A DNA stretch of 16,269 nt. It comes from a virus. Shown here one piece after another: positions 9,870 to 10,740 of the stretch. Below the pieces are notes generated by a model. The model saw only the letters and a list, made by a program, of their open reading frames with translations, ran no database searches and had not been told where the DNA came from. Position numbers and translations under genes: made by a program. The stretch's first letter is position 1. Each line of letters begins with the position of its first letter. The DNA lies in the UHGV virus genome UHGV-0094181. One strand, 5' to 3'.

Positions 9870-10202
9870 TCACCCCTCATACAGTAGCTTACTGCCTAAT
9901 TTCATTTTCTGGCGACCAACACAAGTCACCCCCATTTCACTGCGTGGCTTGCTGTACCATGTGCGCTGATTCTTGTGCTCAATACGTTGCAGGTTGCTTT
10001 CAATCTGTTCGTGGTATTCAGCCAGCACCGTAAGGTCTATCGGATTCAGTGCGCTTTCTACTCGTGATTTCGGTTTGCGATTCAGCGATAGAATAGGGCG
10101 GTTAACTGGCTTTGCGCTTACCCCAACTAACAGGGGGTTTGCTGCTTTCCATTGAGCCTGTTTCTCTGCGCGACGTTCGCGGCGGCGTGTTTGTGCATCC
10201 AT
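9870..10202 (-). CDS. N: Antitermination protein N, 110 aa
   Basis: N-terminus MDAQTRRRERRAEKQAQWKAANPLLVGVSAKPVNRPILSL matches the lambda N arginine-rich motif and body; C-terminal 25 aa diverge; AGGAGA RBS. Confidence 0.95.
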   Translation of the reverse strand: MDAQTRRRERRAEKQAQWKAANPLLVGVSAKPVNRPILSLNRKPKSRVESALNPIDLTVLAEYHEQIESNLQRIEHKNQRTWYSKPRSEMGVTCVGRQKMKLGSKLLYEG

Positions 10203-10230
10203 CTGGATTCTCCTGTCAGTTAGCTTTGGT

Positions 10231-10446
10231 GGTGTGGTGGCTGGTAGTCTAGCTCCAGCTTGTTGAGTCTCATTCGGAGGGGTATAACCGGCACCCCAGC
10301 GATTTTTCCATGCGACAACGTGCGCGTTATGGCGGCCTTATCGCCCGCGGCTCCCCATCTCGTCCACGCTATTGCTAGCGTTGGGAGCGCTTCACCGCTC
10401 AACAGTAGGTAAGCACTTGCCAGTGACTAGCTGGCTTCACCACACC
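10231..10446 (-). promoter_or_regulatory. Structured GC-rich N leader: 9-bp long-range stem (GGTGTGGTG / CACCACACC) enclosing about 198 nt with two CTAG-containing hairpins (10240-10259, 10419-10435)
   Basis: Complementary segments read directly; lambda has a shorter RNase III-processed hairpin in the same place (recollection). Confidence 0.5.
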
Positions 10447-10470
10447 CCAAAGCCTTCTGCTTTGAATGCT

Positions 10471-10501
10471 GCCCTTCTTCAGGGCTAAATTTTTAAGAGC
10501 A
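10471..10501 (-). promoter_or_regulatory. nutL (boxB GCCCTGAAGAAGGGC; boxA-like TGCTCTTAA) on minus strand
   Basis: Exact boxB hairpin and near-consensus boxA between pL and N. Confidence 0.85.
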
Positions 10502-10533
10502 TCACCTTCATGGTGGTTAGTGCGTCCTGCTGA

Positions 10534-10613
10534 TGGCTTAAAATTACAAGAAAGATTGTATGTTGTAAACAAGAAGAATTGTAAAAAGAGGCGTGAAAAA
10601 CAAACTCCGTTGT
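10534..10613 (-). promoter_or_regulatory. pL / oL region with three 434-type 14-bp operators (ACAAGAAAGATTGT 10546-10559; ACAAGAAGAATTGT 10569-10582; ACAAACTCCGTTGT 10600-10613); transcript start near 10534
   Basis: ACAA-N6-TTGT sites typical of 434 repressor operators; sequence downstream of start (ATCAGCAGGACGCAC...) resembles lambda pL leader. Confidence 0.7.
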
Positions 10614-10740
10614 TTTTAAACGGAAAATAGTTTGTTTTTTGGTTATCGAGATTGAGGTGGGGATTACTGGTTGCAGGTTCCGACTACATCACCAACAAAG
10701 GATTTGGTTGATGTAAGTTGTTGCATACCTGGGATATTCA

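Follow-up and report, generated by a model that had tools for sequence, protein, structure and literature searches.

A probable processing and scaffold hairpin, with a cassette of probable tRNA-like ancestry, in the N leader of a lambdoid phage, one allele of a hypervariable slot

In phage lambda, the leader of the N message is cut by RNase III at +88/89 and +197/198. In P1 and P7 (C4), P4 (CI) and N15 (CA), structured RNAs are cut from the 5′ leaders of early or immunity operons by RNase P. According to PMC5725501 (citing Wilson et al. 1997, 2002), a highly structured leader of about 200 nt separates nutL from the start of N in lambda, yet N that has bound nutL still represses translation of its own message, an autorepression modulated by RNase III; the processing of the N leader is the subject of Steege et al. 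1987, as cited in PMC5371410. The nutL site is described as consisting of boxA, a spacer, boxB, and boxC (PMC2724277). In the rrn leaders, where the order is boxB, boxA, boxC, the last of these lies in the RNase III helix around 16S, and it has been proposed that the antitermination complex carries the 5′ strand of this helix to its complement (PMC8632103; PMC2724277).

The stretch of DNA analyzed here (the window; 16,269 nt) comes from a lambdoid phage or prophage and holds its early-left control region, with the genes on the minus strand in the order pL, nutL, a 231-nt hairpin, the N ribosome-binding site, and N. The pL start lies at about 10534, as judged by homology to lambda ATCAGCAGG. 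The nearest database records are those of Sf101, HK633, Sf6, and HK446 (97-98% identity), and both nutL and pL are annotated in HK544 and Sf6 at positions that match the window. The original prediction had described a GC-rich, structured element between nutL and the N ribosome-binding site, and this placement holds, with the hairpin at 10223-10453, boxB at 10471-10485, the Shine-Dalgarno sequence at 10210-10214, and the AUG at 10202. The features of the region, all read on the minus strand, are as follows.

10493 to 10501, minus strand: boxA-like sequence of nutL, UGCUCUUAA, where HK544 has its annotated boxA, and inside the putative nutL of Sf6
10471 to 10485, minus strand: boxB hairpin of nutL, GCCCUGAAGAAGGGC, the same as the lambda-type boxB in the alignment
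10223 to 10453, minus strand: whole leader hairpin, between boxB and the N Shine-Dalgarno sequence
10447 to 10453, minus strand: 5′ strand of the outer helix, GCUUUGG, partner of 10223-10229 (RNAfold; invariant in N leaders)
10438 to 10446, minus strand: 5′ strand of the inner helix, GGUGUGGUG, at the acceptor-stem position of the tRNA-like relatives (covariation across leader variants)
10419 to 10435, minus strand: first hairpin, GCCAG-CUAGUCA-CUGGC, at the D-arm position, 2 nt after the 5′ strand (folding; variants)
10425 to 10429 and 10245 to 10249, minus strand: complementary motifs UAGUC in the first loop and GACUA in the last loop (sequence)
10386 to 10417, minus strand: second predicted hairpin, 13 bp with an internal loop (prediction, weakly supported)
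10364 to 10384, minus strand: hairpin CCA-A-CGCUA-GCAA-UAGCG-UGG with a GNRA-type tetraloop (compensatory changes)
10260 to 10363, minus strand: central region of the cassette, where minimum-energy and alignment-consensus structures disagree
10240 to 10259, minus strand: last hairpin, GCUGG-AGCUAGACUA-CCAGC, at the T-arm position and abutting the 3′ strand (stem and flanks as in the T arm of the L120-type relatives described below)
10231 to 10239, minus strand: 3′ strand of the inner helix, CACCACACC (RNAfold; covariation; variants)
10230, minus strand: bulged A followed by CCA, at the discriminator-plus-CCA position of the tRNA-like relatives (most leader variants)
10223 to 10229, minus strand: 3′ strand of the outer helix, CCAAAGC (RNAfold; leader variants)
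10210 to 10214 and 10200 to 10202, minus strand: N Shine-Dalgarno sequence AGGAG and start codon AUG (sequence)
9870 to 10202, minus strand: gene for the N antitermination protein, 110 aa (matching regions in related phages are annotated N)

Alignment with the known N leaders showed that the flanks and the basal helix are homologous to the N-leader hairpin of lambda and 434. The flanks match those of lambda, 434, HK544, and Sf6, and the leader of HK544 and Sf6 is identical to that of the window throughout, whereas the 434 leader matches up to GCUUUGG and again from CCAAAGC with a different sequence in between. The lambda hairpin (121 nt; J02459, 35381-35501) occupies the same position, has the same flanks (GCUUUGG and ACCAAAGC) and the same bulged A, and its inner helix, GGUGUGUG paired with CACACACC, is homologous to GGUGUGGUG and its partner here. 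In contrast, the lambda interior of about 88 nt is unrelated to the 198-nt interior of the window, except for a short GACUAC near the 3′ strand, and the element differs from lambda in its multi-branched predicted fold and in its terminal hairpins with complementary loops. The estimate that the element is about twice as long as its lambda counterpart proved accurate, at 231 against 121 nt, with the leader 110 nt longer, and the element is likewise about double the length of the 434 hairpin. If the pL +1 is placed at 35582, the lambda cuts presumably fall between GCUUUGG and GGUG and between CACC-A-CC and AAAGC, which we take to be the site of the bulged A, where the outer helix meets the inner one.

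The 9-bp long-range stem reported earlier for this region was located correctly (GGTGTGGTG at 10231-10239 and CACCACACC at 10438-10446 on the strand as given), and it forms the inner portion of a longer helix of 16 bp that contains one bulged A. This longer helix joins the sequence that directly follows nutL to one lying 8 nt upstream of the N Shine-Dalgarno sequence. RNA folding, which had been proposed as a check, retained this long-range helix in both constructs submitted to RNAfold, and the region as a whole folded with z = -4.6 and -3.4 relative to dinucleotide shuffles in the two constructs. The basal helix was predicted in 7 of the 7 length classes folded. Covariation was assessed on constructs of the two ends, from which the bulged base was removed to keep the 73-nt type in register, since the bulged A is missing from that type and present in most leader variants. 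Among nine distinct versions of the stem, 95.1% of cells pair, and both sides have changed in 8 of the 16 pairs (for example, G-C in lambda against U-A in 434); none of 500 shuffles reached the observed pairing, nor did shifted registers come close. Some leader variants replace the lambda-type stem altogether, with GGGAUUGGAUG/CAUCCAAUC or with AGUAGCGCG/CGCGUUACU. In other gene contexts, the outer flanks differ yet by inspection still pair, as AUGUUUUGG/CCAAAGCAU, GAACUUUGG/CCAAAGUUC, and GGGUUUGG/CCAAAGCC. These comparisons show that many leader variants preserve the structure of the basal helix.

The 5′ strand of the inner helix is a sequence that we take to be a variant of the boxC of lambda nutL (GGUGUGUG in lambda). 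The leader comparison shows boxC, so assigned, to be the 5′ strand of the helix, kept as a pairing partner and not as a sequence. This layout recalls that of the rrn leader, where a nut-type site is likewise followed by a long-range RNase III helix, with boxC as its 5′ strand, around a structured RNA. The enclosed RNA is 1.5 kb there against about 200 nt here, and the product is rRNA there and N mRNA here; we regard the parallel as an analogy of layout, not as a demonstrated homology.

The interior enclosed by this helix is highly variable among related phages. We gathered 115 loci by way of the N protein and 120 by way of the 3′ flank, and found at least 15 different interiors between GCTTTG and CAAAGC, in hairpins of 65, 73, 75-78, 82, 93, 108, 120/121, 126, 135, 146, 149, 161, and 231 nt. 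Therefore, the element of the window is one allele of a hypervariable slot; instead of the small insertion suggested earlier, which would have gone into the lambda sequence, we see the replacement of a whole cassette between identical flanks. Many of the other cassettes are short (65-82 nt) and resemble plain hairpins. Since the 135-, 146-, and 231-nt alleles have outer segments in common and differ in their centers, as do the 149- and 161-nt alleles, the slot forms a nested mosaic.

This particular cassette moves intact among phages whose boxB sequences and N-type proteins differ. Nineteen phage records contain the 198-nt interior at 100% identity, and its conservation is 93-100% among phages that differ in nutL and N type. 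The interior is also present at 98-100% identity, unannotated, in 60 of 5,426 complete E. coli genomes, at 69 places (1-3 per genome), and all copies in an inspected subset lie in an antiterminator leader or in a truncated prophage. The element is identical in Sf6, HK544, HK633, HK446, mEp213, mEp043, and Sf101, in whose records it is unannotated. As such, the possibility raised at the outset that this is simply the known, unmodified leader of a characterized phage is half right: the sequence is known, but it does carry additional conserved structure. Searches of phages, E. coli genomes, and plasmids for homologs of the interior returned only copies of the element itself. A metagenome search is uninformative, since its pattern of 17 nt proved too short: chance accounted for 28 of the 29 matching contigs.

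Both predicted terminal hairpins were found (GCCAG-TGACTAG-CTGGC at 10419-10435 and GCTGG-TAGTCTAGCT-CCAGC at 10240-10259 on the strand as given), as were the complementary loop motifs, TAGTC at 10245-10249 and GACTA at 10425-10429. Among shuffled loops, about 2% show a 5-nt complementarity by chance. However, what is conserved is not the CTAG to which the original prediction had drawn attention: across 13 variants, the complementary 5-mers are conserved and CTAG is not. Specifically, UAGUC and GACUA are invariant in 13 of 13 distinct versions of the long allele, whereas four of the seven other loop positions vary (Fisher p = 0.015). Three of these versions, 5-7% diverged, come from phages in which either boxB or the N-type protein is different. 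In the first hairpin, the stem and UAGUC are invariant in the 13 variants and loop position C24 varies; in the last loop, GACUA is constant and three other positions are variable.

A sister family built on the GGGAUUGGAUG stem, with interiors of 95-223 nt and including the 149- and 161-nt N-leader alleles, has a first loop GGCUGA and a last loop containing UCAGC, which form a 5-bp helix. This helix is paired in 125 of 125 cells among 25 distinct sequences. One of its pairs occurs as G-C (19 sequences), G-U (5), and A-U (1), and another as G-C (24) and G-U (1), while adjacent loop positions vary freely. Taken with the conserved 5-mers of the window element, the covarying loop helix of the sister family indicates that a predicted Watson-Crick kiss between the first and last loops is a recurrent feature of the scaffold, at the place that the D-loop/T-loop contact takes up in tRNA-like alleles. 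In the window element, the support for this kiss comes from conservation and from analogy with the sister family, not from covariation.

Some relatives in the same slot are tRNA-like. The L170 allele (93 nt) reads GGGGUGUGUAGCUCAGCAGGUAGAGC...CACCGGUUCAAGUCCGGUCACACC-A-CCA; it scores 34.8 bits against the Rfam tRNA model (RF00005; threshold 29), with an aberrant anticodon arm, and ARAGORN calls it a tRNA. A copy with 91% identity is annotated as tRNA-OTHER in two E. coli genomes, and the copy in strain AR_0058 lies after the nutL of a P22-type leader and before a small open reading frame and gene 24. For a further allele, L256, Rfam aligns the ACCA to the 3′ end of tmRNA in a weak match. The L120-type allele (136 nt) consists of a D arm, a long extra arm, an invariant arm of 5 bp with a 7-nt loop, a 4-nt linker, and a T arm, GCUGG-UUCGACU-CCAGC, which stacks on a 9-bp acceptor-like helix followed by A-CCA. 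In this cloverleaf, 96.7% of cells pair across 16 distinct sequences, and 10 of the 36 pairs have changed on both sides (0 of 500 shuffles did as well); the family has no Rfam match. The 5′ strand of the inner helix also forms the acceptor stem of this family. L120 elements are found in N leaders (BIS08P22), in late leaders between tR′ and the holin gene (HK75 and vB_EcoP-611R6), beside tRNA-Ile in Skate-like virulent Salmonella phages, and, in tandem with a second element, in lambdoid early-left leaders without N. In these N-less tandems, each copy has its own pairing leader and trailer flanks and is followed by a ribosome-binding site and a gene.

The window element and the L120 family share their first 20 nt, their last 22 nt, and the stem AAGCUGG...CCAGC. 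Because these ends are common to both, the two hairpins singled out by the original prediction fall at the D-arm and T-arm positions, and the tRNA-like relationship thereby gives them a structural meaning. The element scores 28.4 bits (E about 9e-4; span 10227-10448) against the L120 covariance model, R1, which aligns only the ends and treats the interior as an insertion. As in tRNA and in the tRNA-like domain of tmRNA, an acceptor-like helix leads to A-CCA, the first hairpin begins two nucleotides after the 5′ strand, and the last hairpin, of 5 bp, is stacked on the 3′ strand. Unlike in these RNAs, the acceptor-like helix has 9 bp, the core has 198 nt, and there is neither an anticodon arm nor a T- or D-loop consensus. 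Compared with L120, which alone has the extra arm, the anticodon-like arm, and the canonical T-loop, the window element has AGCUAGACUA in place of the T-loop UUCGACU and GCCAG-CUAGUCA-CUGGC in place of the D arm. Specifically, the L120 D arm AGCUC/GAGCU, its extra arm, the arm AUCGG-CAGCGCA-CCGAU, and the T-loop UUCGAYU do not occur in the window element, and the T-loop UUCRANY and D-loop GG consensus sequences are lacking from its two loops (the 10-nt AGCUAGACUA and CUAGUCA).

ARAGORN found no tRNA or tmRNA genes in the window, an Rfam scan of the whole window at gathering thresholds returned no family for the element, and a permissive Rfam scan of 10150-10560 (E up to 10) likewise identified no family, with no tRNA or tmRNA match. 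A tRNA-sized alignment at 10227-10297 scored 11.5 bits with mismatched pairs and was rejected. Colinear matches between the interior and L120 (6-9 nt, such as GCGCAC and ATGGAA) are individually insignificant and serve only as a lead. Since the element fails all direct tests for tRNA and tmRNA, we do not file it as a tRNA-like RNA, and the case for ancestry rests on the two ends. The ends that carry this signal are also the recombination flanks, a point against the ancestry. The window element is a probable descendant of a tRNA-like RNA gene in a pL leader that lost its T-loop and gained a new interior. More broadly, the inserts with a tRNA frame suggest that the classic lambda hairpin may itself descend from an embedded tRNA-like RNA.

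At 58% GC, the interior exceeds its flanks (about 37-56%) and is similar to other cassettes (53-59%). The earlier description of a GC-rich, structured element therefore stands as to composition but not as to an interior structured beyond random expectation, because the interior alone (196 nt) folded no better than shuffles (z = -0.42). The same pattern was seen in seven leader variants, with z of -3.5 to -7.0 for whole hairpins and -0.4 to +0.9 for interiors alone. Consequently, the low folding energy of the region comes from the basal helix. Within the interior, the core CGCUA-GCAA-UAGCG (10380 to 10367) has two pairs changed on both sides in diverged copies, from G-C to A-U and from C-G to U-A. 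The second predicted hairpin is disrupted in two single sequences and shows no compensatory changes among the variants. Several predicted pairs of the central region (helices 7 and 9) are broken in variants; the minimum-energy structure of these central ~100 nt was rejected as unsupported by the variants and at odds with the alignment consensus.

We hold with moderate confidence that the element is this phage's version of the lambda-type processing and scaffold hairpin of the N leader, and that its cassette is a compact, folded insert, descended from a tRNA-like RNA, that is probably set free by cleavage. On present comparisons, it is most likely a cis-acting module that would control N expression through processing and scaffolding, and the excised core may also act as a tRNA-like RNA. 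By analogy with lambda, the helix would fold the long leader back on itself and place the N ribosome-binding site close to the N/Nus complex bound at nutL. The same helix would be an RNase III substrate, as its homology to that of lambda implies, and a cut there would part nutL from the N message and set the level of N translation. Common to the cassettes is a scaffold in which an acceptor-like helix is followed after two nucleotides by a first hairpin, while a last hairpin stacks on the 3′ strand; their terminal loops show either the tRNA D-loop/T-loop pattern or Watson-Crick pairing, here of UAGUC with GACUA. Such a scaffold could hold a cassette tightly together, whatever its length, and so allow the basal helix to form; cleavage would then release the cassette as a separate, folded RNA about 210 nt long.

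It is possible, though we consider it doubtful, that the cassette is instead an independent RNA gene: a small RNA that mimics tRNA, is made from pL, is excised from the leader and acts in trans, for which the N leader is merely a convenient, early-expressed carrier site. It might then serve as a decoy or competitor for tRNA-binding host or defense factors, or function in competition between phages. The portability of its L120 relative across N leaders, late leaders, and a tRNA-Ile neighborhood, together with the covarying cloverleaf, fits this account, and so do the movement of the window cassette as a unit and its conserved kissing loops; indeed, the 93-100% conservation and the compensatory changes are more than a pure spacer would need, which favors a function of its own. 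However, the T-loop consensus and the D arm have been lost, neither ARAGORN nor the Rfam tRNA and tmRNA models recognize the element, many cassettes of 65-82 nt look like plain hairpins, and no complementarity of 11 nt or more was found elsewhere in the window. The same lack of antisense targets (at least 11 nt, within the 16-kb window), together with the absence of an Rfam C4 match in 10150-10560, led us to reject an antisense RNA of the C4/CI type, whose known members are antisense regulators with targets in the same transcript. Scans of both strands found no promoters or terminators inside the element, leaving an internal transcription unit or an antisense RNA unsupported.

The opposite account, in which the interior is neutral filler from lambdoid mosaic recombination, tolerated as long as the basal helix forms, seems to us distinctly improbable. 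Many unrelated cassettes of widely differing length, an interior that folds at shuffled level, and the lack of homologs elsewhere fit this account; the internal hairpin with compensatory changes, the loop 5-mers that persist amid varying neighbors, and a terminal-hairpin architecture that recurs in unrelated cassettes with a covarying loop-loop helix speak against it. Conservation and compensatory changes argue that the interior is more than filler. Neither is it at all likely to encode a small protein. Open frames do exist, and PQ850599 carries a hypothetical protein here; the open reading frame at 10220-10402 (minus strand, 60 aa) has, as first described, a TTG start, and inspection found no Shine-Dalgarno sequence before it, but it is not the only one inside, since the plus strand also has 10260-10412 (TTG, 50 aa) and 10310-10378 (ATG, 22 aa). 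The coding option was rejected in view of the TTG starts, the absence of Pfam matches, and a variant in one viral contig whose 1-nt deletion shifts both the 60-aa and 50-aa frames; moreover, the substitutions in diverged copies are compensatory at the RNA level. As to the enzyme, RNase P with a 3′ nuclease, cutting 5′ of G10446, is an unlikely substitute for RNase III as the main processor. RNase P does process leader-embedded regulatory RNAs in P1/P7 (C4) and P4 (CI), relatives in the same slot are called as tRNA, and the element offers an acceptor-like stem stacked on a T-like arm; by inspection, it also resembles tRNA precursors in the ACCA behind its 3′ strand and in having U/G at the predicted -1/+1 positions. 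Yet the stack is 9 + 5 bp against the canonical 7 + 5 bp, the T-loop consensus is missing, the predicted structure pairs the CCA with the leader, which should be an obstacle for RNase P, and the homologous lambda helix is processed in an RNase III-dependent manner.

A bolder and only tentative extension, to which we give a minor share of belief, is that the early leaders of temperate phages, including the N leader of lambda, carry embedded genes for tRNA-mimicking RNAs that are cut out at the boxC helix, the window cassette being a divergent member with a function in trans. The Watson-Crick kiss would then substitute for the elbow of the D-loop and T-loop, and the new core of about 150 nt would act in trans, possibly as a decoy for tRNA-directed host defenses or processing enzymes. 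If true, this would explain both the purpose of boxC and why the slot is hypervariable.

Databases already contain the sequence of the element, and what the hairpin does has been established in lambda. In the literature searched, the primary lambda papers aside, we found no description of the leader polymorphism, the scaffold, the tRNA-like relatives, or tRNA-likeness. For the window itself, the element can now be annotated as an N-leader processing hairpin with defined parts. The L120 elements constitute an unannotated tRNA-like family, backed by covariation, that extends over temperate and virulent enterobacterial phages and bears on phage tRNAs as a counter-defense. Altogether, these results indicate that the hairpin of the lambda N leader, a textbook regulatory RNA, is a hypervariable slot on a conserved helix, that this slot holds tRNA-like RNAs in related phages, and that the role of boxC and the presence of an RNase III site before N are now testable questions.

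Scaffold elements, each consisting of an acceptor-like helix with a first hairpin two nucleotides in and a last hairpin stacked on its 3' strand, can occur more than once at a single locus. We found two in tandem in lambdoid early-left operons that carry gam, a recT-like gene and an exonuclease gene and that lack N (loci L292, L242, L271, L256, L235 and L259). The leaders of these operons are approximately 580 nt long, and a separate leader/trailer helix (AUGUUUUGG/CCAAAGCAU) closes each element; at L256, ARAGORN calls the first of the two a tRNA-Ser. In L262, a long-type element (the type found in the window) is followed on the same contig, after a few dozen nucleotides, by a 135-nt-type element, which is flanked by GAACUUUGG and CCAAAGUUC and precedes AGGAGG and ATG.

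L292 1960-2570: N-less leader with two tandem scaffold elements
L262 7012-7137: second scaffold element, 135-nt type

Small ORFs accompany some leader elements. At two loci (L040 and L082), the 73-nt hairpin is separated from the N start by an inserted 44-codon ORF (MNNEALKEMIAKLLEDARRIQEVEPNAGTQSRIDEAMKLLKGE) that has a ribosome-binding site of its own. In the P22-type leader of an E. coli AR_0058 prophage (L297), the tRNA-OTHER element is followed by a hydrophobic ORF and then by gene 24. A degraded prophage of E. coli P276M (L004) has a deletion endpoint within its long leader element; the 91 nt that remain from the 3' end of the element are joined, a short way upstream of N, to a truncated pseudogene ("packaged DNA stabilization protein").

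L297 2610-2729: 39-codon hydrophobic ORF (MLEIITNPILGGAIITFAIGIGFTIWSEVDDWMWERKNK)
L004 4001-4091: remnant of the long leader element

Among the genome-contig matches (L005-L021 and others), assemblies that bear the labels Shewanella, Paenibacillus, Capnocytophaga, Pseudomonas, Enterococcus and others contain lambda sequence, with some of the matching contigs being about 48.5 kb; this is almost certainly contamination by laboratory lambda DNA.

Within the window, RNAfold pairs GCAUUCA, directly after boxB, with UGGAUGC, which begins with the UG of the N start codon and takes in the five bases that follow. This pairing is predicted in every leader variant folded; comparison does not support it, since a few natural variants disrupt it without compensation. 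Separately, the pL/OL region is closely preceded by a terminator-like hairpin, which is probably the repressor-operon terminator, comparable to the Timm feature annotated in HK544.

Window 10463-10469 with 10195-10201: GCAUUCA/UGGAUGC pairing
Window 10605-10625, minus strand: terminator-like hairpin with a T run

The 136-nt RNA family typified by L120, present in 92 phage records, is tRNA-like and supported by covariation; Rfam returned no match for it. Specifically, it comprises a 9-bp acceptor, a D arm, an extra arm, an invariant arm (AUCGG-CAGCGCA-CCGAU) and a canonical T arm.

L120 7896-8032: L120-type element
L327 (HK75) 1797-1932: L120-type element
L328 (Skate) 1797-1931: L120-type element
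L329 (BIS08P22) 1504-1640: L120-type element

One locus (L267) contains both this type and the long type. Altogether, members of the family occupy N leaders, the stretch of late leader that separates tR' from the holin gene, and, in virulent Salmonella phages, sites adjoining tRNA-Ile.
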